Shown: positions 251 through 14,771 of the stretch, one piece after another
Numbering within the stretch: the first letter of the stretch is position 1
How the letters are laid out: each line of letters opens with the position of its first letter
From: a virus
UHGV virus genome: UHGV-0136760
Reading direction: 5' to 3' (one strand)
DNA: 15,014 nucleotides
The notes under the pieces: model-generated
Told to the model about the DNA's origin: nothing
The model's database searches: none
The model's input: only the letters and a program-made list of their open reading frames with translations
Made by a program: the position numbers and the translations under genes

Positions 251-436
251 TCAGTGGCGAATGCAGCCAGCGAAAAAGCAGACATGTGTAGGCGCTACCA
301 GGCGACGCGCTTCTTTTTCTGTTTCAGCTTCAATGCGGAAGGTGACGAGTTTTTTTTCTTTAGAATCGCGAGGAAGACCGCCGATGATCCATAGCGGGGG
401 GCGTTTATCGGATTTGGAATTAGCGTAAATATTCAT
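251..436 (-). CDS. hypothetical small protein (61 aa)
   Basis: Track ORF 251..520 trimmed to the ATG at 436, which has an AAGGAG Shine-Dalgarno 8 nt upstream. Sequence MNIYANSKSDKRPPLWIIGG...; no recognisable domain. Confidence 0.45.
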   Translation of the reverse strand: MNIYANSKSDKRPPLWIIGGLPRDSKEKKLVTFRIEAETEKEARRLVAPTHVCFFAGCIRH

Positions 437-677
437 AGTGTGACTCCTTGCATCTGGAGCCGCCGCAAGCTGTTCCACGGCTGGTGGCGGCGCAATACAG
501 GCTGGAACACCGTGAGTCACCGGGGGCTTTCAGCCACCCATATTGCGCCGCCATAACTATGACGCGGGCAATATTACAAAACTTAATAAGATTTGTCTCG
601 TTTGATTCGACGGTGCCAACCGACTAATAGGAATTTACTTAAAACTAATTTGTAGATCAACTAAAACTGTTAGAAAA

Positions 678-1283
678 TTAAGGTGTCAAATCAAGCGCCA
701 TCTTATAGAGCGTCATTTGGTCGGCATTGTGCCGTATAAAATCACTCTTACCGCCTACCTTTCCATCAGCATGAACGGGTACCAGCCAGGGATACTGTGT
801 CCGGACTTCTGCTGGCGCTGCATGTTGGTGATGCCATTTGCACAAAGGGAGGACATATTTATGTGCATCTGCGACTGTCCTGCCAAAAATGTGATGCAGG
901 GAGATGTGTGGACTATGCTTGCCATGCAACTGGCACGCAATACACGGTAAGGTGGCAATGGCACCCTGTATTCTGCGTTCTTCCGCTGTCAGTGAGCGCC
1001 CTTTTAGTCCGCGTGATGCACGTTTGGTTACTGCCACCTTTTTTACTTCCCCGGCAGAAGCCTTGCTCATAGCTTTCTCTTTTCGGCGTTCCTCTGCCTT
1101 CCTGACTGCTTCAATTTTTTCCTGACGATATTCAGGTGAAGCCAATTTTTCACGTGTGCGCTGATACTGGCGCTGTGCTCTCAAACGCTGTTTTTCCCGT
1201 TGTGATTCTCTCCACTCAGGATCGGACAATTTCTGTAGCGCTTTCTGGCGCTGCTTTTCCCACAGAGACAGTTTTTCTTTCAT
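678..1283 (-). CDS. HNH endonuclease, Ref-like (phage P1 recombination enhancement function family)
   Basis: 201-aa ORF. The N-terminal half is a highly charged K/R/E/Q-rich region; the C-terminal half carries an HNH/zinc-finger signature (CIACQLHGKHSPHISLHHIF ... LPLCKWHHQ). Assignment by motif recognition only. Confidence 0.65.
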   Translation of the reverse strand: MKEKLSLWEKQRQKALQKLSDPEWRESQREKQRLRAQRQYQRTREKLASPEYRQEKIEAVRKAEERRKEKAMSKASAGEVKKVAVTKRASRGLKGRSLTAEERRIQGAIATLPCIACQLHGKHSPHISLHHIFGRTVADAHKYVLPLCKWHHQHAAPAEVRTQYPWLVPVHADGKVGGKSDFIRHNADQMTLYKMALDLTP

Positions 1284-1330
1284 AGCGATACCTGGTTATT
1301 CATACGAGGACACTATGATTGATCGAATTC

Positions 1331-1358
1331 GTTAGAAATTCAAAATTGAATTTCTAAC
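1331..1358. promoter_or_regulatory. 28-bp palindromic operator-like site (GTTAGAAATTCAA-AA-TTGAATTTCTAAC)
   Basis: Perfect 13-bp inverted repeat arms with a 2-bp spacer, in the intergenic region between the divergent Ref-like gene and the rightward operon. A TTGAAT -35-like hexamer (1346-1351) lies inside it. Confidence 0.5.
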
Positions 1359-1403
1359 ACATTTTGGTAGTCTTTGCGCATTGCCTTCATTCGGGAGAAC
1401 ACA

Positions 1404-1556
1404 ATGCTGATTGTTTTGAGTGCGCTACACCTTCCGCCTCTAACTGACACCACCCTGTCTCATGGTCTGCTTTTGTTAGCGCTGGCACTTTTTGAACTTG
1501 GGATTGAGCTTTTTGCTTTGACGCTGTTTTTCGTAACGATGCTGGAGAAATTCTGA
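1404..1556 (+). CDS. small hydrophobic membrane peptide (50 aa)
   Basis: ATG at 1404 with a GGGAGAA Shine-Dalgarno 4-5 nt upstream. Almost entirely hydrophobic sequence (LLLLALALFELGIELFALTLFFV). Its stop overlaps the next start (TGATG). Confidence 0.4.
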   Translation: MLIVLSALHLPPLTDTTLSHGLLLLALALFELGIELFALTLFFVTMLEKF

Positions 1557-1849
1557 TGGCACGTGCTTTGAAGTTTTATATCGCTGGCCCCATGACTGGC
1601 TACCCTGATTACAACCGCGCAGCGTTCGATGCTAAAGCCAAAGAGCTTACGGAGCAGGGGTATACCGTAATTAACCCAGCCATGTTGCCGAATGGGCTTA
1701 CCCAGGCTGAATACATGGATATTTGCCTGGCGATGGTTCGTTCAGTTGATGCGGTGTATTTACTTAAAGGCTGGGAGGGATCCGCAGGAGCGCGGGCAGA
1801 GTACGCGCTGGCTGAAAAATTAGGCCTGATGACTGAGGTGGAGATATGA
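1556..1849 (+). CDS. DUF4406-like protein (nucleoside 2-deoxyribosyltransferase-like fold)
   Basis: N-terminal FYIAGPMTGYPDYNRAAF motif typical of DUF4406 / deoxyribosyltransferase-like proteins. GGAGAAA Shine-Dalgarno; its stop overlaps the downstream start (ATGA). Confidence 0.6.
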   Translation: MARALKFYIAGPMTGYPDYNRAAFDAKAKELTEQGYTVINPAMLPNGLTQAEYMDICLAMVRSVDAVYLLKGWEGSAGARAEYALAEKLGLMTEVEI

Positions 1850-2490
1850 GCAACCGTTTTTACATGTTGTGCCTTCGTGAAACGGTCGGTAATAACGCCT
1901 CATTCCATTGCCACAACGGTTATGGGTACAGTTCGGATATTGACCGCGCACATGTTTATACACGGGAAGAAGCCCAGCAGGAGTGGGAACGAGGACGAGA
2001 CATTGATCAGCCTGTTTGCGCTGATAGCGTGGATGCAATGGCTGTGTGGCACGTTGATTGCCAGTACATCCCTACAGAAAGCCTGATTGAGTCAGATTGC
2101 ACTGCGTATGTGGCCTACAAAAAAGGTAGCTGGAACGGCAACGATGTTTACTGGCTTCAACACGGTGGATTGCCAACAGATGACTTCAGTAAAGCGACCA
2201 TCTTTAGCGTCGCCAACAAAAACGAACCAGGAATAGTTTGGTTGCCATTTTCCATTGCTGATGCAGCAAAGCGCCGGACGTTCAATATCAATAACTTTAA
2301 CCGCAGAACAATGGTTCAGGGCGCAGGTTTAGTGATGCCTGAGTGGTTAAAAAAACAGAACAGACGAAAGGAATCACGTAGCGGTAAGGTGCGCTGGAAC
2401 TGTCCGTATTGCGGAAAAATCACCTGGCAATACAGCCCATATGATTTTGAAGGATGTCGTGATTATAACTGCGAAGGGTGGATGCAATGA
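1846..2490 (+). CDS. hypothetical protein with C-terminal zinc-ribbon (CPYCG...C..C), paralog copy A
   Basis: 214-aa ORF translationally coupled to the DUF4406 gene. C-terminal CxxC...CxxC motif. Near-identical paralog at 4590..5234. Confidence 0.65.
2005..2273 (+). repeat. 269-bp segment identical to 4749..5017 (core of duplicated gene)
   Basis: By-eye comparison of the two paralog genes: this core appears base-for-base identical, while flanking parts of the same genes are clearly diverged. Confidence 0.75.
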
Positions 2491-3149
2491 CGAAATACTA
2501 CCAGCGAATCGACGGCACAGAATTTAGAAATGTATGGGTAGTAGGCGATCTGCATGGCTGCCACACGCTGTTAATGAATGAGCTGGACCGCGTTGGCTTT
2601 AACCCGGAATGTGATTTGCTCATCTCTGTGGGTGATCTTATTGATCGTGGTCCTGAGAACGTTGAGTGCCTGGAGCTTTTACAGATGCCCTGGTTCAGGG
2701 CAGTAATGGGAAACCATGAGGATTTAATGCTCGACGGTATATCGCCAACGGGGAGTGTAACGAACTGGTTGATAAATGGCGGCGGTTGGTTCTACTCGCT
2801 GGATACGGATAAAAAAGCACTTGCTATGTCGCTGGTGGAACGTGTCAGACAGTTACCGTACATCATAGAGTTGAAAACCACGTCAGAAACTATCGTGATC
2901 GCCCATGCTGATTATCCGGACGGAGAATATCAATTTGGGAAGCAGGTGCCTTTTTTCACTGTTATGTGGGGCAGGGAACGCATCAGTGAGTCTATAGACG
3001 GCATCGGTGGAGAAATAGCAGGTGCTGACAGATTCATCTTTGGTCACTCACCTGTAAACATGCCTAAAACCTTCTGGAATCAGCACTACATCGACACTGG
3101 TGCGGTGTATTGCGGAAAACTGACGCTAATGCAGGTCCAGGGGGTTTAA
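2487..3149 (+). CDS. Ser/Thr protein phosphatase, lambda NinI (lambda PPase)-like metallophosphatase
   Basis: PPP-family metallophosphatase motifs GDLHGC, GDLIDRG and GNHE, and a length (220 aa) matching lambda phosphatase. Start taken at the ATG at 2487, which overlaps the upstream stop (ATGA), rather than the track start at 2478. Confidence 0.85.
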
Positions 3150-3165
3150 CTTTTCATGTGCCGCG

Positions 3166-3188
3166 CCGGGGAATAGCCGTGTCCCCGG
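3166..3188 (+). other. GC-rich hairpin (CCGGGGA-N9-TCCCCGG) downstream of the phosphatase gene
   Basis: 7-bp inverted repeat directly after the stop at 3149. Not followed by a T-tract, so not a canonical intrinsic terminator. Confidence 0.25.
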
Positions 3189-3223
3189 TCCGAACTATAG
3201 ATACAAAGCGCACAAACATAAGT

Positions 3224-3251
3224 GTTAGAAACTTGATTTTAATTTTCTAAC
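3224..3251. promoter_or_regulatory. second 28-bp operator-like site (GTTAGAAA-N12-TTTCTAAC)
   Basis: Same 8-bp outer arms and same 28-bp length as the palindrome at 1331-1358. Lies about 45 bp upstream of the 3295 start and overlaps a TTGATT -35-like element. Confidence 0.45.
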
Positions 3252-3294
3252 AGATTATTTTACCACTCGGAACAAAACTGAGTCGGTATCTATT

Positions 3295-4290
3295 ATGAGT
3301 GCAATTATTACCCCCTATGTCTCGCAAGAGACTGGTGTTGCAGTCTTTAAGGTAGATAAGGCCACCAGCGGCTTTATCGGTTCCGGTAGACGCTTCATCA
3401 TTTCCCCGTTACCACGCGAACAAGCAGAAAACACTGCTGATGGTATCGTAGACCTTAACTATTCGCTGGTGGCTAATGAATCCTTATCACCATTCTTCAA
3501 TAGTGAGCGTGTCTTTACCGTTCTTGGAGGCGAGGGTTCTTTAGTGTCATGGGTAAGTCGCAATATCCATGAATGCCAGGCGCATGACAAAACACTATGT
3601 AGCAACAGGTTAACTACCCATTTCCATAATGGTTCAGCCGTGCGTTTATGCTGGGATCATGACGCTGAGTACATGATGAAAGGCTACGACAAGTTACGTG
3701 ACCAACTGGCGCTTAACCGGGCCAACTGGATTATGAACTGGGCGGCTAGTGAGTTAAAACTCCCTGCTGAACGTGACCTGAGCATGGTTGAGCTTGCGTT
3801 CTGGGCTATTCGTCGCGGCCTGAAAAATGAGTTACCGGAAGAAGCCGGGCGTATCGCTTTGTGTCTGCCAAAAGATGAAATCCCTACCGGACCGCTGAAA
3901 GAGTCCGATATCACCTGGCAAAACAGTACACGTGAAATTGTGAATTTAACCGCAGAGCAGATCGTAACTATTGCCGTTGATGAAGATTCCGGCCTGCTTT
4001 ATATGCGCCGACCAAAAGCGGTCCTCGGTAAAAGCCCGGCTTATCTCCGGTTTGTGGTTTCTCGTCCGTGCATCGGATGCGGTGGCAAAGTTAACCACCC
4101 GTTCATGTACCGCGCCCGCTCGTTAAACGAACACGACCGCTGGGCTGTTCCTCTTTGCGATGACTGCGCCAGAAGCGCAGAAAACGATGTTCGGACATGG
4201 GAAAAAGCACATGGCATACGCCTTTACGTAGCCGCTAACCAGCTTTTCGACTTCGCCATTGAGCGCGGAGTGATCACGTTCAATAACTGA
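3295..4290 (+). CDS. DUF968-like (YdfU-like) phage protein with C-terminal Cys-rich HNH-like motif
   Basis: 331-aa ORF. C-terminus CIGCGGKVNHP...NEHDRWAVPLCDDC resembles an HNH/zinc-binding motif. Family assignment from memory of the DUF968 architecture; unverified. Confidence 0.55.
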   Translation: MSAIITPYVSQETGVAVFKVDKATSGFIGSGRRFIISPLPREQAENTADGIVDLNYSLVANESLSPFFNSERVFTVLGGEGSLVSWVSRNIHECQAHDKTLCSNRLTTHFHNGSAVRLCWDHDAEYMMKGYDKLRDQLALNRANWIMNWAASELKLPAERDLSMVELAFWAIRRGLKNELPEEAGRIALCLPKDEIPTGPLKESDITWQNSTREIVNLTAEQIVTIAVDEDSGLLYMRRPKAVLGKSPAYLRFVVSRPCIGCGGKVNHPFMYRARSLNEHDRWAVPLCDDCARSAENDVRTWEKAHGIRLYVAANQLFDFAIERGVITFNN

Positions 4291-4303
4291 TGGAAACAAC
4301 GCA

Positions 4304-4597
4304 ATGAGTCAAGGTAACGGTGACGGAGCTGCAAAGTGCAGAATCTCCACTTGTTTGATTAATGACAGAAAAATAGAACCGTGCGCGGCGCTGGCACAAT
4401 CTCTGGAGCAGGATGCTGAATACACGACGCGAAAAGGTCTGCTGAAATACAAAATCTATAACCATGAATTAATTCATTCACAAGACCTGATCATGCTGCG
4501 GTCTGGTGAATTTTCTAAATCGCCTATTCGAGTTTCATTTTGCCCGTTCTGTGGTGAAAGTCTGAAAACGTGGGAAGCGGAGGCAACCAGTGAATAA
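4304..4597 (+). CDS. hypothetical small Cys-containing protein (97 aa)
   Basis: ORF with cysteine pairs (CRISTC ... CPFCG) suggesting a zinc ribbon. Its 3' end overlaps the start of paralog copy B by 8 nt. Confidence 0.5.
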   Translation: MSQGNGDGAAKCRISTCLINDRKIEPCAALAQSLEQDAEYTTRKGLLKYKIYNHELIHSQDLIMLRSGEFSKSPIRVSFCPFCGESLKTWEAEATSE

Positions 4598-5234
4598 CCG
4601 CTTTTACATGATGTGCTTGCGTGAAACTGTGGGTAATAACGCCTCATTCCATTGCCATAACGGCAATGGTTACAGTTCTGATATCGATCGCGCTCATGTT
4701 TACACGCTGGAAGAAGCCCAAAAAGCCTGGAATTGTGGACGAGATATCGATCAGCCTGTTTGCGCTGATAGCGTGGATGCAATGGCTGTGTGGCACGTTG
4801 ATTGCCAGTACATCCCTACAGAAAGCCTGATTGAGTCAGATTGCACTGCGTATGTGGCCTACAAAAAAGGTAGCTGGAACGGCAACGATGTTTACTGGCT
4901 TCAACACGGTGGATTGCCAACAGATGACTTCAGTAAAGCGACCATCTTTAGCGTCGCCAACAAAAACGAACCAGGAATAGTTTGGTTGCCATTTTCCATT
5001 GCTGATGCAGCAAAGCGTCGGACGTTCAATATCAATAACGTTAACCGCAGAACAATGGTTCAGGGCGCAGGTTTGGTCATGCCTGACTGGTTGAAAGAGC
5101 AGAACAGAAGAAAGAAGTCGCGAAGCGGGAAGGTGCGTTGGAATTGTCCGCATTGCGGAAAAATAACCTGGCAGTACAGCCCATATGATTTTGAAGGCTG
5201 TAGTGATTACAACTGTGAAGGATGGCGAGAATGA
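4590..5234 (+). CDS. hypothetical protein with C-terminal zinc-ribbon, paralog copy B (GTG start)
   Basis: 214-aa ORF, same length and same C-terminal CxxC...CxxC motif as 1846..2490. The central part is identical at the nucleotide level; the ends are diverged. Confidence 0.65.
   Translation: MNNRFYMMCLRETVGNNASFHCHNGNGYSSDIDRAHVYTLEEAQKAWNCGRDIDQPVCADSVDAMAVWHVDCQYIPTESLIESDCTAYVAYKKGSWNGNDVYWLQHGGLPTDDFSKATIFSVANKNEPGIVWLPFSIADAAKRRTFNINNVNRRTMVQGAGLVMPDWLKEQNRRKKSRSGKVRWNCPHCGKITWQYSPYDFEGCSDYNCEGWRE
4749..5017 (+). repeat. 269-bp segment identical to 2005..2273
   Basis: See paired repeat feature; offset between copies is 2744 bp. Confidence 0.75.
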
Positions 5235-5839
5235 CAATTGACTATCAGGCACTGCGAGATGCGGCAGAACGTGCAATTCCAGCAATGGAACGCCTGTTAA
5301 TGTTGCCAGTTGATGATGATTTGTTAAGTGAACAGGAACTTAAAGATTACGGTGTGGATATTGATGCGCTCAACGCCTTCAAATTTCTGACCGGACCAGA
5401 AACCGTGCTGGCACTACTGGATGAGATCAACGCATTAGAGGAAGCGCGTATCAACGATGTTTGCCGTATTGCGGAACTAACAAAACAACTGGAGTTGGCA
5501 AAATCAAAACTCAACGAGCAGCGTGAGTATTACGAAGGTGTTATCTCGGATGGAAGTAAGCGCATAGCAGAACTGGAAGCGCGGGGAATAAAACCAGCCA
5601 AAGGTGAAGTTCTGGTCGTTGTATCTGGTTTTACTGGTTGCGGAAAAAGCGCCATTGCCGGGGAAATAGAAATCGCGATGAAGGCTATTGGTGTACCGGT
5701 TCAGTGGACTAATGGCGATGCGGAAAAGCGCATGACAGGAGCTGACTGGCTGACAGCGATTGAGATGTACAAACCAACAGTGCGCATCGTGGAAGTTAAT
5801 GTGCCACGCGCCGCTGGCATTCGCATCAAAGGAGAGTGA
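5231..5839 (+). CDS. Ead/Ea22-like protein with P-loop-like motif
   Basis: N-terminus MTIDYQALRDAAERA is typical of the Ead/Ea22-like family of lambdoid early-left accessory proteins. Contains GFTGCGKS, a Walker A-like motif. Start taken at the ATG at 5231, overlapping the upstream stop (ATGA). Confidence 0.6.
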   Translation: MTIDYQALRDAAERAIPAMERLLMLPVDDDLLSEQELKDYGVDIDALNAFKFLTGPETVLALLDEINALEEARINDVCRIAELTKQLELAKSKLNEQREYYEGVISDGSKRIAELEARGIKPAKGEVLVVVSGFTGCGKSAIAGEIEIAMKAIGVPVQWTNGDAEKRMTGADWLTAIEMYKPTVRIVEVNVPRAAGIRIKGE

Positions 5840-5840
5840 G

Positions 5841-6596
5841 ATGATTCACTACCACGGTGGGCCTATTACTCCTGATACGTGCGCAATGAGAGCATGGAAA
5901 GGGCGACATGCGTTTATCAGTTTTGCGCATTCAGGCCAGATCAATCTCGCGGCTGAATACTGTCAGTCGTTCGCGCTGGACAACGGTGCATTCACCGCCT
6001 GGAAAGCAGCTGGCAAAAACAAAATCGACTGGAGCGATTACTACGAGTTTGTTGCTCGCTGGAAGAATCACCCAGGATTCGATTTTGCCATTATCCCGGA
6101 TGTTATTGATGGCGGAGAGGAGGAAAATGATGCGCTTCTGAATGAGTGGCCTCACGGAAAACTAGCTGGCGTTCCAGTGTGGCACATGAATGAAAGTGAC
6201 GAGCGATTTATTCATTTGTGCAATGAGTTTCCGCGAGTGGCTATCGGTAGTTGTGGCGACTATGACGTAAAGCGCCCAACTCTTGCGGTAGCCAGAATGA
6301 AAGACCTGATTCGTCACATTGTTGATGAGTATGGTCAGCCGGTTACGAAACTACATGGGTTGCGCATGTTAAATCCGCTGATATTCACAAAATTACCCTT
6401 AGCCAGCGCAGATAGTACGAACGTCGCTCGAAACATCGGTATTGATAAAGCCTGGTCTGGGGCTTATGCACCTGCAAGTAAAGAGACACGCGCAGCATTA
6501 ATGGTAGAACGGATTGAGGCACACAATAGCCCTGGTTCTCTTGCGTATTGTGAACAACGCGACCGCTTTGAAATGCAATTGCAACTGGCAGTTTAA
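5841..6596 (+). CDS. TGT-like (tRNA-guanine transglycosylase fold) protein, candidate DpdA-like DNA 7-deazaguanine transglycosylase
   Basis: ATG at 5841 with an AAAGGAGAG Shine-Dalgarno. Three motifs in TGT order: LDNGAF (compare TDSGGFQ), VAIGSCGD (compare AVGGLAVGE) and ADSTNVARNIG (compare DCVMPTRNARNG). The protein is shorter (251 aa) than bacterial Tgt. Confidence 0.5.
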   Translation: MIHYHGGPITPDTCAMRAWKGRHAFISFAHSGQINLAAEYCQSFALDNGAFTAWKAAGKNKIDWSDYYEFVARWKNHPGFDFAIIPDVIDGGEEENDALLNEWPHGKLAGVPVWHMNESDERFIHLCNEFPRVAIGSCGDYDVKRPTLAVARMKDLIRHIVDEYGQPVTKLHGLRMLNPLIFTKLPLASADSTNVARNIGIDKAWSGAYAPASKETRAALMVERIEAHNSPGSLAYCEQRDRFEMQLQLAV

Positions 6597-6606
6597 GGAC
6601 TAACAC

Positions 6607-7029
6607 ATGACCACTATTACCAAAGAACGTGCGGAGATTAAATCATTCATCACAGGCTTCCTGAGCGACCCGGCGCACGATAACCAATCTTCAGACAGCC
6701 TGCTTGCCAATGTGTTTCGTATCGCGCTGGCATCGCTGGAAGCAGAGGCTATTGGTGAAGTTTCAGAGCAGCGACATGGCCTTGTTATGGATGGAACGGT
6801 ATATCTTGGTGAGAAATCAACTTATCGCATCATTAAGGGAGAAAAAGCGATGAAGTTGTTGCCGCTGGGGACGAAGTTTTATACCGCACCGCCAGTGCCT
6901 GTAGTGCCGGAAGAAAAACCAATGCCTAACCCTCTTAGCATGTACGCGGTTGATGCTGTTGCCGCTATTGCAGAGGTGAGAGGCTGGAATGCCTGCCGTG
7001 CTGCCATGCTTAAGGGGAAAGGAGAGTGA
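6607..7029 (+). CDS. hypothetical protein (140 aa)
   Basis: ORF with AAGGACTAA Shine-Dalgarno. Shares the N-terminal MTTIT start with the next gene. No recognised domain. Confidence 0.55.
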   Translation: MTTITKERAEIKSFITGFLSDPAHDNQSSDSLLANVFRIALASLEAEAIGEVSEQRHGLVMDGTVYLGEKSTYRIIKGEKAMKLLPLGTKFYTAPPVPVVPEEKPMPNPLSMYAVDAVAAIAEVRGWNACRAAMLKGKGE

Positions 7030-7030
7030 T

Positions 7031-7579
7031 ATGACCACTATTACCAATAAGAAACAGTATCCCAGCGAGCAATATCTTAATGAGCTGATCACCAACATAG
7101 AGTTTGCTGCAAGGGCACCAGTTGAAGTCGTGAGAGCGATGGCAGCAGAGCTACAGAAGCGGCGCGAAGCTGATAGTGCAGAACCTGTAAGCCAAACTTA
7201 CAAGTTGCCAGTTAATACACCTTGCCAAGATGCGCCAGCCCATATCTGGCTGCAAACGGCTGGAGTATGGCCAGAAGATGGCGAGTTAAGCGAATTAACG
7301 TGGTGCAGCCACAATCAGCACCATGATGACACGCTATATGTTCGAGCTGACCTTGTGAATGGCAACTATCCGGTAACTCCGGATGGTTGGATAAGCTGTA
7401 GTGAGCGAATGCCCCCTCAAGATGATTGGATTTTAATTTATTCAAAGCACGGCGAGTATATGGCAGGACAGGTACAAGGGGAATACGTGGAGTTGAGCGA
7501 CGGCACTTTATCGTGGTTAGGGAACGCCTTGTACTGGATGCCACTACCAGAGCCGCCGCAGGAGGTTAACCGTGGCTAA
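7031..7579 (+). CDS. hypothetical protein with C-terminal DUF551-like domain
   Basis: ATG at 7031 with a GGAGAG Shine-Dalgarno. C-terminal region GWISCSERMPP...WMPLPEPP matches the phage DUF551 signature. Confidence 0.55.
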   Translation: MTTITNKKQYPSEQYLNELITNIEFAARAPVEVVRAMAAELQKRREADSAEPVSQTYKLPVNTPCQDAPAHIWLQTAGVWPEDGELSELTWCSHNQHHDDTLYVRADLVNGNYPVTPDGWISCSERMPPQDDWILIYSKHGEYMAGQVQGEYVELSDGTLSWLGNALYWMPLPEPPQEVNRG

Positions 7580-7853
7580 CCTGCAACTTGCCGTCAAAGG
7601 TGAATACTTCGATGCCATGATTCGCGGAGAGAAAACGGAAGAGTATCGCTTGTGTAATGGCTACTGGAATAAGCGAATCATGTTCCGGGAATATGACCGC
7701 CTGATTATCACAAAGGGATATCCGAAGCGCGACGATTCCAGTCGCAGAATAGACGTCCCGTATAACGGATATGAAATCAAGACAATCACACATCCGCACT
7801 TCGGTGATAAACCGGTAAAGGTGTACGCGATAAAGGTGAATATCAATGGCTAA
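7572..7853 (+). CDS. ASCH/DUF3850-like small protein
   Basis: GTG start with a GGAGG Shine-Dalgarno. N-terminal LAVKGEYFDAMIRGEKTEEYR resembles the ASCH-domain beta-barrel motif. Overlaps its neighbours at both ends. Confidence 0.5.
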   Translation: MANLQLAVKGEYFDAMIRGEKTEEYRLCNGYWNKRIMFREYDRLIITKGYPKRDDSSRRIDVPYNGYEIKTITHPHFGDKPVKVYAIKVNING

Positions 7854-8274
7854 ATTTCAAAGAGCTATTATTTTTCTGGCTATGTTATCAGCCAGTCATT
7901 TATCCCACGCGTCAGTTATTGCCGCTGGAGCGGCGGCAACAGCGGCGGCAACAGCGGCGACCACGGCGGCAGTAAATGCTTCTATCGCCAGCGAGCAAGC
8001 GCGGCGTGCTGCAACCAATGCTTCCGCAAACACCACCACGGTATCAGTCACACAATCAAAACCGAATATAGGCTTTGTTACTTGTGGCAAGCGATATGGT
8101 GAAATGGTTGGCTCTCTTGGTTGCGTAATGTGGCAAGACGACGACCGAACAGAAATTCCGTGGAACTCATGGCCTGGCTACATTCTTGGTAAGAAGCTGC
8201 CCACCAGCTATGAAGTAAATGCTATTTCGTTCGACCAATATAACAGTGTTGCAACGGTCTATTTCTCTTATTAA
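7846..8274 (+). CDS. secreted protein with signal peptide and Ala/Thr-rich low-complexity region
   Basis: N-terminal signal-peptide-like segment MAKFQRAIIFLAMLSASHLSHA, followed by an Ala/Thr-rich tract and a C-terminal domain containing two Cys. Confidence 0.6.
   Translation: MAKFQRAIIFLAMLSASHLSHASVIAAGAAATAAATAATTAAVNASIASEQARRAATNASANTTTVSVTQSKPNIGFVTCGKRYGEMVGSLGCVMWQDDDRTEIPWNSWPGYILGKKLPTSYEVNAISFDQYNSVATVYFSY
7931..7966 (+). repeat. tandem 12-bp repeat (CGGCGGCAACAG x2 plus one degenerate unit) inside a CDS
   Basis: Direct tandem units read in the sequence; they encode the AAATAAATAATT low-complexity tract. Confidence 0.5.
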
Positions 8275-8286
8275 CACGGAGTAATT

Positions 8287-8580
8287 ATGTGGCGCGGTAA
8301 TAATCATGGTGGAAGCCAGATGATACTTACCGAATATCAGCTCGACCACAAAACCAATAAATCACGCTCAGTATATTTGCTTCGGCACAATAGCCGCGTA
8401 AGGAATACCGTGCTGGAGCAAAATCTGACCGTTGAAATGGATAATTCGGGGAACTTCAAGCCAACAATTTCGCTTGATGATTTTCCGCGTGGTTTAAGCG
8501 AAAGAGAAGCCATGCTGAAATTAGCAGAATGGCTTCAGAGGTTAAGTATTGTTATTGAAGATAACTGGAGTCAACCATAA
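8287..8580 (+). CDS. hypothetical protein (97 aa)
   Basis: ATG at 8287 with an ACGGAG Shine-Dalgarno 5 nt upstream. An alternative internal start at 8320 also has a Shine-Dalgarno. Confidence 0.5.
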   Translation: MWRGNNHGGSQMILTEYQLDHKTNKSRSVYLLRHNSRVRNTVLEQNLTVEMDNSGNFKPTISLDDFPRGLSEREAMLKLAEWLQRLSIVIEDNWSQP

Positions 8581-8756
8581 TGAAAAACAGAAAGAAATTT
8601 TGGATTACTTTTTTGTTTGTATGCCTTTGCGGTTTATTTATTTTATTAGCTGGTGGTGTTAAATGGGGTACGGTGGGGTGTGGTTTTTGGAGCGGGGTTA
8701 CTCTTTTCGCAGCCTGGCTTATCGCCAACTTTGAGTCAGGCGGAGGGTATTGGTAA
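8580..8756 (+). CDS. small membrane protein (58 aa, two predicted TM helices)
   Basis: Not in the ORF track (under 60 aa). ATG at 8580 overlaps the upstream stop (TAATG), with a GGAG about 10 nt upstream. Translation MKNRKKFWITFLFVCLCGLFILLAGGVKWGTVGCGFWSGVTLFAAWLIANFESGGGYW. Confidence 0.45.
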   Translation: MKNRKKFWITFLFVCLCGLFILLAGGVKWGTVGCGFWSGVTLFAAWLIANFESGGGYW

Positions 8757-8776
8757 GTGGTCTTATTCCCCACTTC

Positions 8777-8830
8777 ATAACGGATATCACGCTCGTGATA
8801 ACGGATATTCCAATTTTGATAACGGATAAG
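8777..8830 (+). promoter_or_regulatory. three phased direct repeats of (G)ATAACGGATA upstream of the 8836 gene
   Basis: Copies at about 8777, 8797 and 8818, spaced 20-21 bp apart (about two helical turns), in the 79-bp intergenic gap. Confidence 0.45.
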
Positions 8831-8835
8831 GCCAA

Positions 8836-9045
8836 ATGAAGCATTTTTTAAGGTTGGCATTTGTTCTGGCGCTATTTGATCCTCCGGCTGCAATGGCTGG
8901 AGAACAGCAACATTGCACAAAAGAGAATGAACACCCTTTCATCGTTATTCAATGTGATGACGGAACGGTGACAGTGGTTAATGTAAGAAATGACCGTGTA
9001 GCCGTATGCCGTAAAGGCGAACCATGCAAGGAAATAAAACTATGA
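8836..9045 (+). CDS. small secreted Cys-containing protein (69 aa) with signal peptide
   Basis: N-terminal signal-peptide-like MKHFLRLAFVLALFDPPAAMA, then a mature part with four Cys. Confidence 0.55.
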   Translation: MKHFLRLAFVLALFDPPAAMAGEQQHCTKENEHPFIVIQCDDGTVTVVNVRNDRVAVCRKGEPCKEIKL

Positions 9046-9806
9046 CTAAAATCACTAAATTTCGCATATCAGAGATTATTGCACGCATCGAAATGTATGG
9101 ACACGGCGCTGGATACACGGCAGATGAGGTATTGGAGCTTGCCCAAATGGCTTTGGCGACTTGCAAAGATGGTAAAACAATGAAGCTGATCGACTTGTTA
9201 GTGAAGGAGTTGCCTAAGCGCGGCGGATGGCCTTATGGTATGATCGATTGTCGCCTGCTCAGTGCCAATTTAATGGTGCCATGCGCGACTTTTGCTTTTG
9301 GCTCAGACTGCAAAAAAGACCAGTTCGATGGGCGCAATTTTTGTTTTGAGATTGAGCTTCCAATTCATGACCTTGATAGCGATGAATACCAGTCAGTTGT
9401 CACTCACGAACAATACGAAGCCGCTCTCATAGCGTCGCAGCAAGTCGAGTTCAATGGTGATGAACTTGAAAGTAAGGCTTACAAGTTAGATTTTGAGCAA
9501 TGGCTGGAGCAGCAGCGCGGGAAAATCGATGTGGACTGCGGTTGTGTGTCTGCGGAAACATTCATGCACTGGTTGCGGGTAGCTTATGAGGCTGGCAACC
9601 ATCCGGATTTTCCGGATAGTTCCCAACAAGCGCCCAGGAAAAGCGTAAAAACCACTCTGGAAAGAGGCTATCTTGAGGCCGCATTAAAGATTAAGCCGGG
9701 CCATACGCTAGGCGTCATTGATGCCATGTTGGTTCATGAAATGGCGAAGGCTTTATTGCCGCTGGTGGCTGATAAACATGAGGCGGACCATGCCAACGAA
9801 AGCTGA
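9042..9806 (+). CDS. hypothetical protein (254 aa)
   Basis: Start taken at the ATG at 9042 (MTKITKF...), which has an AAGGAAAT Shine-Dalgarno and overlaps the upstream stop. No recognised domain. Confidence 0.55.
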   Translation: MTKITKFRISEIIARIEMYGHGAGYTADEVLELAQMALATCKDGKTMKLIDLLVKELPKRGGWPYGMIDCRLLSANLMVPCATFAFGSDCKKDQFDGRNFCFEIELPIHDLDSDEYQSVVTHEQYEAALIASQQVEFNGDELESKAYKLDFEQWLEQQRGKIDVDCGCVSAETFMHWLRVAYEAGNHPDFPDSSQQAPRKSVKTTLERGYLEAALKIKPGHTLGVIDAMLVHEMAKALLPLVADKHEADHANES

Positions 9807-10074
9807 GTTACAGGCGCGCGTAGAGATTCTTGAAAAAGAGAATGCCAGCCTCAAAGGAATGCTGGCGCGGGCGGAAAGGGAATTATCAGGTAAATTATTG
9901 CCAGAGGAGCGACCACCAGCAGATATACCCGACCGAGTGTCCCGGTGGATGAAGTCTTTTTGTTTGTCGTGGGAGACTTTTTGGTGCTACGACCATCGCA
10001 GATGGTGCGATGAACTTGATAGCAGCTTTCCCTACTTTGCGGAAGGTAACACCTGCCCTCAATGCAGGGGATGA
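9790..10074 (+). CDS. coiled-coil protein with C-terminal Cys-rich (zinc-finger-like) tail (94 aa)
   Basis: ATG at 9790 within track ORF 9718..10074. N-terminal heptad-like segment ELQARVEILEKENASLKGMLARAERE; C-terminal CxxxxW...C...CPQC. Confidence 0.45.
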   Translation: MPTKAELQARVEILEKENASLKGMLARAERELSGKLLPEERPPADIPDRVSRWMKSFCLSWETFWCYDHRRWCDELDSSFPYFAEGNTCPQCRG

Positions 10075-10415
10075 GATTTAACGAAATCGATCACCCTATC
10101 CTGAACTTCAGAAAGAAGGTCTTTTTCACAAGCCAGGACGTCATGATATTGACGTTCTGGCCTCACCAGATGCCGAAGCCTCCCATTAAGCAGGATGGCC
10201 TCAGAAAACACTTTTACGCTGTGCTTTACCCCCTCTGCTTCACTTTTAAGCGTCAAAATAAAGCGCAATTGCTTAATTGCATTGGCATGATTCAGGTTCA
10301 ATACACGAATTTGCAGTTCGTCTATGCTATTTCGCAATGGGATTGATGCCACCACACTGGTGCAGTCTCTGATTGTCTGAATTGAACGGCTAACATTGAG
10401 AACGTTATTGTGCAT
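10059..10415 (-). CDS. hypothetical protein (118 aa), antisense to the main operon
   Basis: Long minus-strand ORF with plausible protein-like composition, divergent from the 10448 gene. Weak ribosome-binding site. Competes with plus-strand ORF 10062..10346. Confidence 0.35.
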   Translation of the reverse strand: MHNNVLNVSRSIQTIRDCTSVVASIPLRNSIDELQIRVLNLNHANAIKQLRFILTLKSEAEGVKHSVKVFSEAILLNGRLRHLVRPERQYHDVLACEKDLLSEVQDRVIDFVKSHPLH

Positions 10416-10447
10416 GTGCCTGATCCACTAACTCTAGGAGGTTTCTT

Positions 10448-10699
10448 GTGTCAGATCGAAATATAGCAGCTAAAAGCCAGGAAGAGCGAGACAAGGTGAA
10501 CGTAGACCTTGCCGCCAGCGGCGTTGCTTACAAAGAACGGCTGAATATACCTGTGATTGCAGAGCAGGTGGCCCGTGAGCAACCGGAAAACCTGCGCGCC
10601 TATTTCATGGAACGGCTACGGCACTACCGGAAGTTAAGCCTCCAGTTGCCAAAAGGGAGCGATCCGGTGTATCAGAACGAGGATGCACCAAAAAAATAA
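10448..10699 (+). CDS. hypothetical protein (83 aa), GTG start
   Basis: Strong AGGAGG Shine-Dalgarno about 7 nt upstream of the GTG. No recognised domain. Confidence 0.55.
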
Positions 10700-10784: not shown

Positions 10785-10804
10785 TACTGTATGAATAAAC
10801 AGTA
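10785..10804 (+). promoter_or_regulatory. LexA box (SOS box) TACTGTATGAATAAACAGTA
   Basis: Matches the CTGT-N8-ACAG consensus. Lies about 20 bp upstream of the UmuD'-like gene and overlaps -10-like hexamers. Confidence 0.7.
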
Positions 10805-10822: not shown

Positions 10823-11212
10823 ATGGGCTTCCCTTCTCCTGCGGCGGATTATGCAGAGAGCCGCATTTCTCTTGATCAGCAACTAATCAGACATCCTTCC
10901 GCGACCTACTTCATGCGGGCGGCAGACAGCCATCACCGTGAGGGAATATTGCAAGGTGCTTTGCTGGTGGTTGATTCCTCACTTACTCCGGTTGATGGTT
11001 CACTGCTTATATGCGCTATGGAGGGTGAATATCGCATAAAGAGATACAGGAAGTATCCGCGCCAGCACCTGGAGGATTTAAGCACCGGGAAGAAAGAGGC
11101 GTTACCAGTAGATGACGATGGATGCACGGGCAGTAATGCTGTGTTTGGTGTGATCACTCATGTCATTAATGATGCCCGAAGTGGGGAGTTTGATTATAGA
11201 CCTGTGATTTAA
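10823..11212 (+). CDS. UmuD'-like protein (S24 LexA/UmuD peptidase fold lacking the N-terminal arm; P1 HumD-like)
   Basis: Starts MGFPSPAADYAE, i.e. at the position corresponding to the UmuD to UmuD' cleavage site. Colinear with E. coli UmuD' through to FGVITHVI. GAGGTAAAA Shine-Dalgarno. Confidence 0.8.
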   Translation: MGFPSPAADYAESRISLDQQLIRHPSATYFMRAADSHHREGILQGALLVVDSSLTPVDGSLLICAMEGEYRIKRYRKYPRQHLEDLSTGKKEALPVDDDGCTGSNAVFGVITHVINDARSGEFDYRPVI

Positions 11213-11257: not shown

Positions 11258-12352
11258 TCATTCAATGATTTTTTCGGCTGTCAGCCAGCTAATTTCGTGC
11301 CTGTCTTTCGGCGGTTTTAGCATGTGAGCATATTCAGCGACATGCTCCCACGGAATTGTTTTTGCCCACTCAACGATAGCATTGTGATCTGCAGTGAAGA
11401 GTGGAATAGTGTGCGATTTCAACCATTCTAATGTCGTGACGCCATGTTTTTTGGCGTGGTGCTGCGCATGATGCCGGGCTATCACTCGTAATGGCATTGT
11501 CCATTCACTACCATCAGGCATCGAAAAGCGCATTGTCTTCGGCATATCTGATTCAAGAACAGCCTCCCTAATACCAGGGAACTCACCAAGAATCATACGA
11601 CGATAGTCATCACTATTTCGCCCGCCATACCTTTCGGCAAAATGATCAAGATATTCTTGGGTAATAAATGGTGAATCCTCCGCACTCAGCTTAATGGCTT
11701 TATATACACCACTCGGATTATCTTCAGCTAAAGCACGTCCATGATGTGAATCATAAAAAAAGCCTATTTCCTCTGGTGACGGAATTGAAGTGAGCAATAT
11801 GCGTGAATCACCACTAGTCATGCTTGCCCACACAATGCTGTATGCCCGATCGCTGATATGTGCGGAATCCACAATAATGAATAAAAGATGGTCGGCGTAG
11901 TGACCTGCAATGCTATCTTCATAGTTAAGGCGGTAGTTACAAAAGCACATTCCCCAAAATTCATTGAACATCAGACCGCTATCACCGACCTTAAAATACT
12001 CAATGATAAAAGGTTGTTTTTTCAGCAATGCCTCCCAACATTGCCACACATATGCAACAATTCCTCTTTTGCAAACATTTGATTTTGGATAAACAATTAC
12101 TGTCCGGGAATCAGGATACATAATCGTATAAAGGGTACTAATAACAGCAAGCACTTGCGGTCGTCCGATCCCATACGGAGTGGTGACAGTAGCTTTTGCA
12201 TTATTGGGCTGTATAGCTTCAACAATTTGTTGTTGCTGGTGGCTTAAATCAATATCAAACAATTCTTTTGCTGCCAGTACCCAATTGTCTTTATATTTCT
12301 CCACCAGCGACAGCCAGCGCGGATCTTTATAAATATTGCTCTTAGTCGCCAT
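11258..12352 (-). CDS. terminase large subunit-like ATPase-domain protein (no nuclease domain)
   Basis: Start taken at the internal ATG at 12352 (MATKSNIYK...), which has an AAGGAAG Shine-Dalgarno and overlaps the upstream stop. Terminase-like motif order: P-loop-like GIGRPQ, Walker B-like LLFIIVDSAH, motif III-like LLTSIPSPEE, then YRRMILGEF. Only 364 aa. Confidence 0.5.
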   Translation of the reverse strand: MATKSNIYKDPRWLSLVEKYKDNWVLAAKELFDIDLSHQQQQIVEAIQPNNAKATVTTPYGIGRPQVLAVISTLYTIMYPDSRTVIVYPKSNVCKRGIVAYVWQCWEALLKKQPFIIEYFKVGDSGLMFNEFWGMCFCNYRLNYEDSIAGHYADHLLFIIVDSAHISDRAYSIVWASMTSGDSRILLTSIPSPEEIGFFYDSHHGRALAEDNPSGVYKAIKLSAEDSPFITQEYLDHFAERYGGRNSDDYRRMILGEFPGIREAVLESDMPKTMRFSMPDGSEWTMPLRVIARHHAQHHAKKHGVTTLEWLKSHTIPLFTADHNAIVEWAKTIPWEHVAEYAHMLKPPKDRHEISWLTAEKIIE

Positions 12353-13109
12353 CTGCCACTTCCTTAACTTCTTCTTTGGCCTGTTCTGCAATCGCCGCAC
12401 GGCATTTCGCCCTGGCTGTAGCGATTGCTTCAGCTCGCACATCGTCTGGAATCGTTGACGTGATATACATATCCAGTTCTTCGGCACGGAATACTGTTTG
12501 GTCCAGATATTCGCGTAGCATCCAGGTAAATTCGAAATCACACGCGATAATCTCTGCGCTACCTTCTGCACCATTTGGGAAATGAATAAATGCCTGTTTA
12601 GCCAAACCGATAACACGACATGCGGTTGCCAAAACAGCGACAACCAGGTTTACATTTTCACACGCTACGGGCTGATTAACGCCGGAGATTACTCCATTTA
12701 ACTGTCGGTTATATGGAAGGTAGTTTGAGATGCGTTCTACGCGCCATGTGCCAGTCAGGCTGCCATTTTTAAAGATAATTGGTGTAACGGATAGCCCAAG
12801 CTCGCGTATAAGTCGTTGCGCTATAGCAGGATCATTAAACAGGTCTAATGCTACACATTCGAAAGACTGCGCAAGGGCAAACAGTTCTTCCAGAGAGTAG
12901 TCTTTGCCCCTGGCGGTGATGTAACGACGAACGCCGCTGTCTGCATCACTCCATATAGCTACGCCATGCTCTTCATTCAGCTCTTCATTAAAGCCGAGAT
13001 ACGTCATGATAGTGCGTTCAATCGTGTCAAACGGCAGTGACATGTCGGCGTTAACAGCCACCAGCAGGCCATTACGCAAGCGGTATTGAATTGTTTTAGT
13101 GCTTTCCAT
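12342..13109 (-). CDS. hypothetical protein (255 aa)
   Basis: ORF with a GGAG Shine-Dalgarno. Acidic Ala-rich C-terminal tail. No recognised domain. Confidence 0.55.
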   Translation of the reverse strand: MESTKTIQYRLRNGLLVAVNADMSLPFDTIERTIMTYLGFNEELNEEHGVAIWSDADSGVRRYITARGKDYSLEELFALAQSFECVALDLFNDPAIAQRLIRELGLSVTPIIFKNGSLTGTWRVERISNYLPYNRQLNGVISGVNQPVACENVNLVVAVLATACRVIGLAKQAFIHFPNGAEGSAEIIACDFEFTWMLREYLDQTVFRAEELDMYITSTIPDDVRAEAIATARAKCRAAIAEQAKEEVKEVADGD

Positions 13110-13115
13110 GTCAAA

Positions 13116-13778
13116 TCACTCCACAACAAACCAGTCACAGGCCAGCAGGTCGCCAACTGAAGGCACCCACGGAACAACTACACCTTGTGCATTTTTTAAG
13201 GCGAAATAAGCACCATACGGAACGAGGTCGCCGGGGAAATATCCCTTAATGGCTTCCATTCGTGCCGGGTGCTGTCCTTCAGGAACCAGCCAGCAGAATT
13301 GGTCTTCGCCGTTCCACCCGCGTCGAGCAACTTTCTTGCCATCCTTCATCCACATCAGCGCGTCAGAAAAGTCGGCTGCTTCAAGGTCGATTTCTTCTTG
13401 TAGAGTAGCGATACCGCCAGCAGAAATAGTTACGTCCCTGGCTGTAATGAATGTCACCCCATTGTGACCTTCAATGCTGAGCGATACCCCATTTTCGGAG
13501 GCGTCGTTAACCCGGCTATAGCATTTTTCAAATGCTTTCTCTGGCACATAGACCAGATAACCATTTTCAGCAGTGACGAGATATCCTCCTATTTGCGGTC
13601 GGAACTTTTCCAAGAACACACCATCAACACGAAGCGTCATTCCTTTTGGCTCCACGACTTCGATGCTGCCAAAAATGGGCGCATAAGCTTTGCCGACAAT
13701 AACAATATCTTTGATTTTCGATGCCCGAATGATGCTGTGGCATTTGTATTTGGGGAACACCTGAAAAGTGCTGGCCAT
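13116..13778 (-). CDS. two-domain protein with C-terminal DUF2829 (Tad2-like) domain
   Basis: C-terminal ~90 aa (FSDALMWMKDGKKVARRGWNGEDQFCWLVPEG ... VVPWVPSVGDLLACDWFVVE) matches the DUF2829 signature. The N-terminal ~125 aa is an unrelated domain. GAGGAAGG Shine-Dalgarno. Confidence 0.6.
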   Translation of the reverse strand: MASTFQVFPKYKCHSIIRASKIKDIVIVGKAYAPIFGSIEVVEPKGMTLRVDGVFLEKFRPQIGGYLVTAENGYLVYVPEKAFEKCYSRVNDASENGVSLSIEGHNGVTFITARDVTISAGGIATLQEEIDLEAADFSDALMWMKDGKKVARRGWNGEDQFCWLVPEGQHPARMEAIKGYFPGDLVPYGAYFALKNAQGVVVPWVPSVGDLLACDWFVVE

Positions 13779-13792
13779 AATCCTTCCTCTAC

Positions 13793-14287
13793 TTAAAACT
13801 TTGCGTACTGAAGCGGTGTACGCTTGATTTCAACGCGGCCTTCCGATGTGCTACCAAAGCCACCAGCACCACGCTCCGTTTCGTTGAGTTCCTCAACCTC
13901 GACTAGTGAGACTTGTTCAACACGCTCAAAAATACCTTGCATGACAGCCATTCCAGGCTTGAGACAAACGCCTTCCCCGCCGGGATCAGTAATCAGTTTT
14001 GCCATGATTTCGCCGCGATAATCGGAGTCGATAATTCCTACGCAGTTAGCCAGGCGAGTATGTTTTTTGCAGCCCAATCCGGATCGCGGATAGAGTTTCA
14101 GACACCAGCCGGGCGGGATCTCCATAGCCAGTCCGGTATACACCCACCAGCTTGAGGAAATTGCACCATTGCTATCGACGCATGGTGTTATTTCAACAGC
14201 CTCAAAATCCATTGCTGCCGATCCTGCGGTGGCATAGAACGGCAGTTTTGCACCAGGATGCAGGCGCTTCACTTTTACGTTAATCAT
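13793..14287 (-). CDS. dut: dUTP diphosphatase (trimeric dUTPase)
   Basis: Start taken at the internal ATG at 14287 (MINVKVKRL...). All recognisable dUTPase motifs present: YATAGSAAMDF, PRSGLG, GIIDSDYRGE and RGAGGFGSTS. Overlaps the upstream gene by 8 nt. Confidence 0.85.
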   Translation of the reverse strand: MINVKVKRLHPGAKLPFYATAGSAAMDFEAVEITPCVDSNGAISSSWWVYTGLAMEIPPGWCLKLYPRSGLGCKKHTRLANCVGIIDSDYRGEIMAKLITDPGGEGVCLKPGMAVMQGIFERVEQVSLVEVEELNETERGAGGFGSTSEGRVEIKRTPLQYAKF

Positions 14288-14771
14288 GCTTCTTTGCTCT
14301 TTTGGTGAAGGTGTAAATTCGACGTTTAATATGCGGGGCAGTCGGTACGGATACGTTTGTGGATTCGATAATGCCTTGCTCTTCAAGAGAGCGAACGGCA
14401 CGCAGGAACTGAGACGCATCGCCGCCACCGGACAGCCAGAATTTACGGGCGTAAATGCTGCCGTTACGGATAATTTCAGCAACGACACGAGACTGGGTTT
14501 GTGTTTCACGATAGGCAAACAGTTGCCGGGCTTCTTCCGGCGTAATAGCCAGTTGATAGCCTTTCCCCTTATGGGCGCGAAGAAAACCAAACGACACCAG
14601 GTGTTTTAGTTCCCTGCGCGTAGTCTCATAACCGTATTCCTGTATCTGGAGATTGAGATCGGCGGGCTTTAGCCATGCTTCCGGCGACTCAGTAAGAAGC
14701 GCCAGCAACTTACCGGATAGCTCAGGGGAGGAAGACGGGTAACAGTTAAGAGATGGGTAATAGTGTTTCAT
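14280..14771 (-). CDS. hypothetical protein with winged-helix-like segments (163 aa)
   Basis: ORF translationally coupled at both ends (ATGA overlap upstream, 8-nt overlap with dut). Helix-turn-helix-like stretches (LKHLVSFGFLRAHKGKGYQL; FLRAVRSLEEQGIIES). Confidence 0.55.
   Translation of the reverse strand: MKHYYPSLNCYPSSSPELSGKLLALLTESPEAWLKPADLNLQIQEYGYETTRRELKHLVSFGFLRAHKGKGYQLAITPEEARQLFAYRETQTQSRVVAEIIRNGSIYARKFWLSGGGDASQFLRAVRSLEEQGIIESTNVSVPTAPHIKRRIYTFTKRAKKHD

Follow-up and report, generated by a model that had tools for sequence, protein, structure and literature searches.

Predicted bivalent and monovalent operators of a C1-type repressor in a D6-like plasmid prophage

The closest described counterpart of the sites analysed here is the operator set of phage P1, which comprises 22 dispersed operators with the asymmetric 17-bp consensus ATTGCTCTAATAAATTT (PMC8546580). 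The curated P1 record places C1 operators ahead of ref (Oref), ahead of the pmgN–ppp operon (Oppp), and directly after the ppp–pmgQ operon (OpmgRa/b). Further C1 operators are annotated before pmgT, lpa (Olpa), and c1/coi (Oc1a–e), where Oc1ab forms a 28-bp bivalent site. P1 also carries the C1-controlled Op51–c4–icd–ant arrangement. The lambdoid phages use dimeric HTH repressors, CI and Cro, which act on palindromes of 14–20 bp. For the D6-like plasmid prophages, to our knowledge, the immunity system has been described solely by homology to P1.

The DNA under study (the window) is a stretch of 15,014 nucleotides of the virus genome UHGV-0136760. Judged by its sequence, it belongs to a D6-like plasmid prophage, a type of element distantly related to phage P1. 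The region matches non-mobilizable plasmids of approximately 80–93 kb from Shigella dysenteriae and E. coli. The best match was the Shigella dysenteriae plasmid NZ_CP026816, having 96.5% identity over window positions 600–6900, and phage D6 (NC_050154) gave a more distant match. D6 shares the gene order, which starts with ref on the minus strand and continues rightward with orf88 (50 aa), DUF4406, accessory genes, ppp, a gap, and the pdcB-like DUF968/HNH gene. Pfam and PHROG scans supported Ref (PF16786), DUF4406, Metallophos, and DUF968 in the window. The right part contains Ea22-like, DUF551, and theta-like genes and a humD-like S24 peptidase gene, followed by a leftward block that includes a Tad2-like domain protein and a dUTPase-domain protein. 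The window is the accessory or "early" arm of the prophage and stops short of the cre-like recombinase gene and c1. Nucleotide matches to P7, P1, and SJ46 start at position 1852, in the upf87.6-like gene, and do not cover the operator at 1331. A tRNA search of the window found none.

Several other elements of the window were recorded. In the leftward block, positions 13116–13778 (minus strand) encode the protein with the Tad2-like (Thoeris anti-defence 2, DUF2829) domain, and 13793–14590 (minus strand) encode a 265-aa protein with a C-terminal dUTPase domain. At the phd/doc position of D6 and P1, the window has an unannotated ORF of 461 aa without a Pfam match (11258–12643, minus strand). A canonical LexA box (TACTGTATGAATAAACAGTA, 10785–10804) precedes the humD-like S24 peptidase gene (10823–11212) by 19 nt, and P1 likewise has an annotated LexA site before humD. 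The pattern CTGT-N8-ACAG had a single match in the window, at 10787–10802, and none at the palindromes described below. Paralogous 214-aa upf87.6-like genes (phrog_2457) are found at 1846–2490 and 4590–5234, one in each operator-controlled unit; their starts are 2744 nt apart, and their first 300 nt are 90% identical. A 31-nt repeat family occurs at 2419, 3910, and 5163. The rightward array also holds a 30-nt inverted repeat (7360–7389 and 9596–9625), the arms of which are 90% complementary and 2.2 kb apart; one of them falls within the DUF551-domain gene at 6989–7579.

Two palindromes are found in the window, at 1331–1358 (GTTAGAAATTCAAAATTGAATTTCTAAC) and at 3224–3251 (GTTAGAAACTTGATTTTAATTTTCTAAC). 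A pattern search of the window bore out the initial annotation in that both have the same length and identical 8-bp outer arms. The pattern GTTAGAAA-N12-TTTCTAAC matched only these two positions, and the number was still two when three mismatches were allowed. The chance expectation for this pattern in the window was 0.10, and none of 200 shuffles reached two or more matches. There are five exact copies of the 8-mer, at 669, 1331, 1351 (minus strand), 3224, and 3244 (minus strand). The first of these copies, at 669–676, is the solitary half-site that had been reported together with the palindromes, and it is real.

The same motif is dispersed over the D6 genome. The 9-mer TTTCTAACA has 12 copies in D6, where third-order Markov simulations gave an expectation of 0.78. 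Intergenic DNA makes up 10.2% of the genome, and 11 of the copies lie wholly within it (binomial p = 1.4e-10). Alignment of the D6 copies yielded an asymmetric consensus of approximately 19 bp, AAATTAGTTTTCTAACACA. Copies are located immediately upstream of c1 (200), pmgS (10323), icd–ant (21268), orf52 (54209), hrdC (64117), and orf117–dut (89949). Another copy (75981) lies between ref and the second icd–ant copy, and the ref/orf88 and ppp/pdcB gaps carry sites at 76618–76645 and 80710–80737, respectively. The plasmid NZ_CP026816 contains TTTCTAAC at 15 places, including perfect bivalent copies at both homologous positions and ahead of an lpa-like gene; single copies precede c1 and the orf117–dut operon, and one lies downstream of ref. 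Two more operator copies (8918 and 9074 in D6, 27489 and 27652 in the Shigella plasmid) lie in 1.2–2 kb devoid of annotated genes, between the tRNA/tciA region and pmgS, and this stretch may harbor the start of an unannotated C1-controlled transcript. The GenBank and RefSeq records of D6 list no operator features. Full-text literature searches on the motif and on D6 operators yielded no relevant paper; the D6 genome paper was outside their reach, and a D6 operator consensus may or may not have been published before.

A matrix built from the D6 sites alone matched the window at the 669 site and at both halves of 1331–1358 and 3224–3251, and nowhere else. The right halves scored 26.2 bits (1331) and 28.8 bits (3224), and the left halves scored 14.0 and 19.7 bits, respectively. 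A search for inverted partners up to 40 nt away gave 16 matches, and 11 of them have a gap of exactly 12 nt; these 11 pairs represent six different promoter regions. Because the gap is fixed, the 28-bp palindrome can be read as a defined bivalent form, in which the "spacer" corresponds to the overlapping 5′ parts of two units. Indeed, the 12 nt are not neutral: they contain the conserved 5′ parts of two overlapping half-operators of approximately 19 bp. The initial annotation had described the sites by their 8-bp arms. The predicted recognition unit is not the arm but the asymmetric site of approximately 19 bp, which is also used singly, and a bivalent site would arise from two inverted units that overlap through their 5′ parts to give the fixed form. 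The proposal of a shared regulon held in part. The recognition sequence is common to the 3224 and 1331 sites and the 669 half-site, but these do not form a local pair; they belong to a set of approximately 12–15 operators distributed genome-wide.

Within this framework, 3224–3251 is a predicted bivalent, two-half-site D6-type C1 operator, homologous to D6 80710–80737. Its strong right half-operator (ATTTTAATTTTCTAACAGA, 3236–3254, plus strand) has the top matrix score of the window. The weaker left half-operator (3221–3239, minus strand) has its core on the plus strand as the left arm of the palindrome. The second predicted bivalent operator, 1331–1358, is homologous to D6 76618–76645. Its center contains back-to-back TTGAAT hexamers, one per strand. 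In both bivalent sites, the low-scoring left halves may contribute little. The predicted monovalent operator (666–684, minus strand, core 669–676) scored 21.0 bits and overlaps the ref stop codon; a perfect TTGACA at 689–684, inside the end of ref, precedes it.

Comparison with P1 and P7 revealed a similar overall design. In both cases, many copies are dispersed over a plasmid prophage of approximately 80–90 kb, an asymmetric unit is used singly or as a 28-bp inverted pair, and the repressors belong to the same protein family. The sites are found at c1, lpa, ref, the ppp operon, the unit that follows, and the c4–icd module. Those of the window take up P1-equivalent places, namely ref and the orf88–ppp operon, the position right after ppp, and the position before the c4/icd-like module. 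In the broad sense of a P1-type C1 operator system, we found more than 10 dispersed and, in D6, almost all intergenic copies of one asymmetric sequence, sites before c1 and known targets, and both monovalent and 28-bp bivalent forms.

The details differ from P1. With the TCTAA cores aligned, the D6-type consensus agrees with the P1 consensus at 12 of 17 positions (8 of 17 in the opposite orientation). The window has no match to the P1/P7-specificity pattern TGC[TA]CTAAT, and, conversely, TTCTAACA did not occur in the 20.8 kb of P1 sequence that was searched. Given the lack of any TGC[TA]CTAAT match and the 12/17 agreement, the sites should not be filed as operators of P1/P7 specificity; they are a different immunity specificity of a known system. 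The D6-type unit extends further in the 5′ direction (AAATTAG) than the P1 unit. In the D6-type bivalent site, the 5′ parts appear to overlap and the TCTAA cores would be 22 bp, or two helical turns, apart, whereas in P1 Oc1ab the 3′ AAATTT tails appear to overlap and the cores would be 12 bp apart. Furthermore, ref and the ppp-type operon have one common divergent bivalent operator here, but two separate loci in P1. The likeness to D6 is closer, since gene order, motif, and positions relative to ref/orf88 and ppp/pdcB are the same. The left arms in D6 are degenerate (ATTAGATA, GTTAGAAC), however, while both window palindromes have perfect 8-bp arms. The lambdoid CI/Cro systems are similar in that a prophage maintenance repressor occludes early promoters and some sites show dyad symmetry. 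In contrast to these, solitary asymmetric half-sites are common at promoters here, the sites are scattered genome-wide rather than confined to one immunity region, and the D6-type repressor has no Pfam HTH match.

The c1 gene lies outside the window; in relatives it adjoins a cre-like recombinase gene. D6 orf1, annotated as C1-like, shares 21% of 240 aligned residues with P1 C1 (E = 2e-8), and both proteins are members of phrog_1678. A Pfam scan of D6 C1 and P1 C1 gave no match, hence no Pfam HTH. Overall, the D6-type repressor and P1 C1 are 21–23% identical, and the D6-type protein is 62 aa longer. A D6-type c1 and a DUF968 gene with the upstream palindrome co-occur on the same contig in at least 19 IMG/VR contigs. 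Every c1 variant examined (80–100% identical to D6 C1) has TGTTAGAAAACTAAAT 15–30 nt before its ATG, which suggests that c1 is autoregulated through this element. The contig closest to the window, IMGVR_UViG_2908543018_000007 (81 kb), has a Ref protein with 99% identity and a nearly identical DUF968 leader. Its c1 gene is intact, is preceded by the same operator, and encodes a protein of 345 aa with 70% identity to D6 C1 and 23% to P1 C1. In the Shigella plasmid NZ_CP026816, the c1 homologue (19287–20323) is split by a frameshift near codon 220 into two "hypothetical" CDSs. A nearly identical IMG/VR contig carries c1 intact. Either the split reflects an error in sequencing, or the repressor of this plasmid prophage is defective.

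The most probable reading, in which we have good though not full confidence, is that 3224–3251 and 1331–1358 are bivalent operators and 669–676 is a monovalent operator of a C1-family master lysogeny repressor. Naming C1 as the binder draws on analogy and on co-occurrence, because D6-type sites are known from sequence alone. C1 is favored by the presence of sites before c1, lpa, icd–ant, and ref, by the likeness to P1 operators, and by the co-occurrence with c1. Since the binder is assigned by analogy, a different plasmid-encoded protein could be proposed to bind the motif, such as an accessory HTH regulator, a Cro-like or antirepressor-linked factor, or an Lpa-type late activator. D6 has other annotated regulators, namely orf72 ("transcriptional regulator"), the orf71 HTH antitoxin, and an Lpa-like activator, and some of the sites precede morphogenesis-type genes (pmgS, hrdC-5-6). 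We consider this assignment unlikely: the genes preceded by the motif are the target set of P1 C1, the motif resembles the core of the P1 operator, and the regulator gene that accompanies the sites from contig to contig is c1. The Lpa variant can be addressed more specifically, as the −22 boxes of P1 late promoters (AAGTGACTT type) are unlike TTTCTAAC. The P1-style late-promoter pattern had one match in D6 and none in the window, which is uninformative on D6 late promoters; rejection of the Lpa variant thus stems from the target set and not from a direct test.

The initial annotation had staked its proposal on conservation of the arms in homologous regions, and the site is retained in related plasmid prophages. 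We found 35 IMG/VR loci with DUF968 homologues (84–86% protein identity), 34 of which have enough upstream sequence. All 34 carry the 3224 site upstream of the gene, at a constant distance from the ATG, as do D6 and the Shigella plasmid. Across 29 distinct homologous sequences, no variation was seen in the right arm or its flanks. The left arm retains GTTAGA, and its two inner positions vary (variants GTTAGAAC/AAT/ATT and ATTAGAAC, and also GTTAGAAT and GTTAGATT), and the right arm does not change in compensation. In the D6-type subgroup, the approximately 70 nt that lead from the palindrome to the start codon show near-zero entropy, and flanking synonymous sites reach 1.0–1.4 bits. As the whole 5′ leader is conserved and not the arms alone, conservation by itself does not single out the palindrome. 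The 1331 site is kept in 33 of 33 D6-like ref loci, and the 669-type operator is kept in all 33 such loci that have sufficient downstream sequence. Three more distant ref loci lack the D6 motif, and one of them has a P1-like ACTCTAAT downstream of ref. Among the 5,426 complete E. coli genomes of the collection searched, blastn detected the promoter–operator segment in about 100, in every case on a plasmid; megablast with the 126-nt query was too insensitive (3 records versus 100). The 4–5 nt outside the weaker arm of both bivalent sites were assessed as a possible mutational hotspot, as at least 10 alleles occur among near-identical sequences. Their entropy of approximately 1.4 bits equals that of synonymous third positions nearby, so that they represent a short neutral gap between constrained blocks.

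The pattern of substitutions bears on whether the palindrome acts instead as an RNA or DNA hairpin, for example as a weak intrinsic terminator or a processing site that ends the ppp operon. Its location suits such a role, being 75 nt past the ppp stop and followed by AGATTATTTT, and the RNA of 3224–3251 folds at −8.0 kcal/mol (z = −2.3). For the 1331 site, the folding energy is −13.6 kcal/mol, and the scan marked this site as terminator-like. However, the left arm changes without compensation in the invariant right arm; pairing is therefore not the conserved feature, and the variation argues for protein recognition of the half-sites. The stem of 3224–3251 has two G–C pairs, and the terminator scan did not call this site, so it does not have the properties of a Rho-independent terminator. 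The same sequence is found solitary at many promoters, where no hairpin can form, and no plus-strand gene lies upstream of the 1331 site to be terminated. Overall, a hairpin function is very improbable.

The left edge of the 3224 palindrome is also a boundary of similarity. The match to most E. coli D6-like plasmids begins at window positions 3222–3224, and several unrelated sequence types are found to the left of the site among relatives; the operator coincides with a mosaic joint between modules. That the sites are conserved "linker" sequences for module exchange by recombination, with no regulatory role, would fit this boundary and the unrelated types beside it, but it leaves the enrichment at the c1, lpa, and icd–ant promoters, the fixed bivalent geometry, and the likeness to P1 operators unexplained, and as a mosaic joint is compatible with an operator, of which it would be a by-product, we give this idea hardly any credence.

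TTGATT at 3233–3238 was read as a putative −35 element, and TATTTT at 3256–3261, 17 nt further downstream, as a putative −10 element lying in a block that is invariant in the homologues. The two hexamers agree with the sigma-70 consensus at 8 of 12 positions. This putative promoter (3233–3261, plus strand) was picked out by eye, because a sigma-70 consensus scan of positions 500–3500 called none. In the curated P1 annotation, TTGATT is the −35 element directly after the operators OpmgT and Oc1e. A −35-like TTGATT overlapping the palindrome at about 45 bp before a gene start had already been noticed. The hexamer indeed lies within the palindrome and ahead of the gene at 3295, the distance to the ATG being 43 nt from the end of the palindrome and 62 nt from the start of TTGATT. 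The strong half-operator sits between the putative −35 and −10 elements, and the weak half abuts or overlaps the −35 element.

The unit downstream of the 3224 site is an unbroken plus-strand array (3295–10699). Its first gene is the DUF968/HNH pdcB-like gene (3295–4290), and upf87.4-like, upf87.6-like, Ead/Ea22-like, DUF551, and other genes follow, with a theta/hot-like gene as the last. The D6-derived matrix revealed no further operator within 3295–10699. The upstream rightward unit (1404–3149) comprises the orf88/pmgN-like small ORF, DUF4406, the upf87.6-like gene, and the ppp metallophosphoesterase gene. The 1331 site is not internal to this rightward array, contrary to what had been proposed, but is located in the divergent control region of ref and the orf88-like gene. 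The ref gene (RecA-dependent nuclease; 678–1283, minus strand; PF16786, E = 5e-35) runs leftward, away from the 1331 operator. This operator probably serves both directions, and the TTGAAT hexamers on the two strands at its center would suit divergent promoters for ref and orf88. The suggestion that two operators split the array into separately repressible modules was right as to separate transcription units. The modules would not be repressed independently, however, as the same operator on both units implies that one protein represses and derepresses them together. No convincing terminator was found between the two rightward units. The sole terminator candidate there is a GC-rich hairpin after the ppp stop (CCGGGGA-N9-TCCCCGG, 3166–3188), which folds at −17.3 kcal/mol with an unremarkable z-score of −1.3 and lacks a T run. 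It is confined to the lineage of the window (the window, L034, and the Shigella plasmid), and D6-type plasmids have unrelated sequence at this position.

On the other side of ref, the sequence downstream of the 669–676 operator looks like an ImmI-like immunity module. A permissive Rfam search gave a match to the C4 antisense RNA (RF01695) at 480–558 on the minus strand, with 38 bits and E = 2.6e-5. This is below the gathering score of 45, and Rfam at gathering thresholds returned nothing in the window. The C4-like element is followed by an icd-like ORF of 61 aa (251–436, minus strand), the homologue of which in the Shigella plasmid is annotated as Icd-like. D6 carries two icd–ant copies. By analogy, the 669 operator, the C4-like element, and the icd-like ORF resemble the Op51–c4–icd–ant arrangement of P1.

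Based on the C1 operator reading, we propose the following mechanism. The repressor bound to 3224–3251 would block RNA polymerase, most likely by occlusion as in P1, and would thereby prevent expression of the pdcB-like/DUF968 operon (3295 to about 10699) in the lysogenic state. This repressor would likewise silence ref, the orf88–ppp operon, and the c4/icd-like module, and all of these units would be released together once it is inactivated. The second operator would provide the long pdcB–hot array with its own repressed promoter. Occlusion of −35 and −10 elements cannot operate at every site, since several D6 sites are approximately 15 nt before a start codon.

These operators are the expected biology for this phage group, and they extend rather than overturn what is known. 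We also put forward, tentatively and with more doubt than conviction, that the D6-type bivalent geometry is inverted relative to P1 and that the operators are preferred joints for swapping accessory modules between plasmid prophages. If the inverted geometry is true, one repressor family would use a different protein–protein arrangement on the DNA. If the operators do serve as joints, an incoming module would automatically come under lysogenic repression.

The D6-like plasmid prophages are found in Shigella and Salmonella as well as in E. coli. In these elements, the operator consensus and the site map would allow prediction of the accessory genes that are silent in lysogens. The candidates are ref, the ppp phosphatase gene, the DUF968/HNH gene, the Ea22-like genes, and the neighbors of the Tad2-like anti-defence gene. 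The consensus would also permit immunity-group typing from sequence. The P1 C1 repressor is well studied and, as far as we know, structurally uncharacterised, and the D6-type system would offer a second, orthogonal C1/operator pair for comparison with that of P1.
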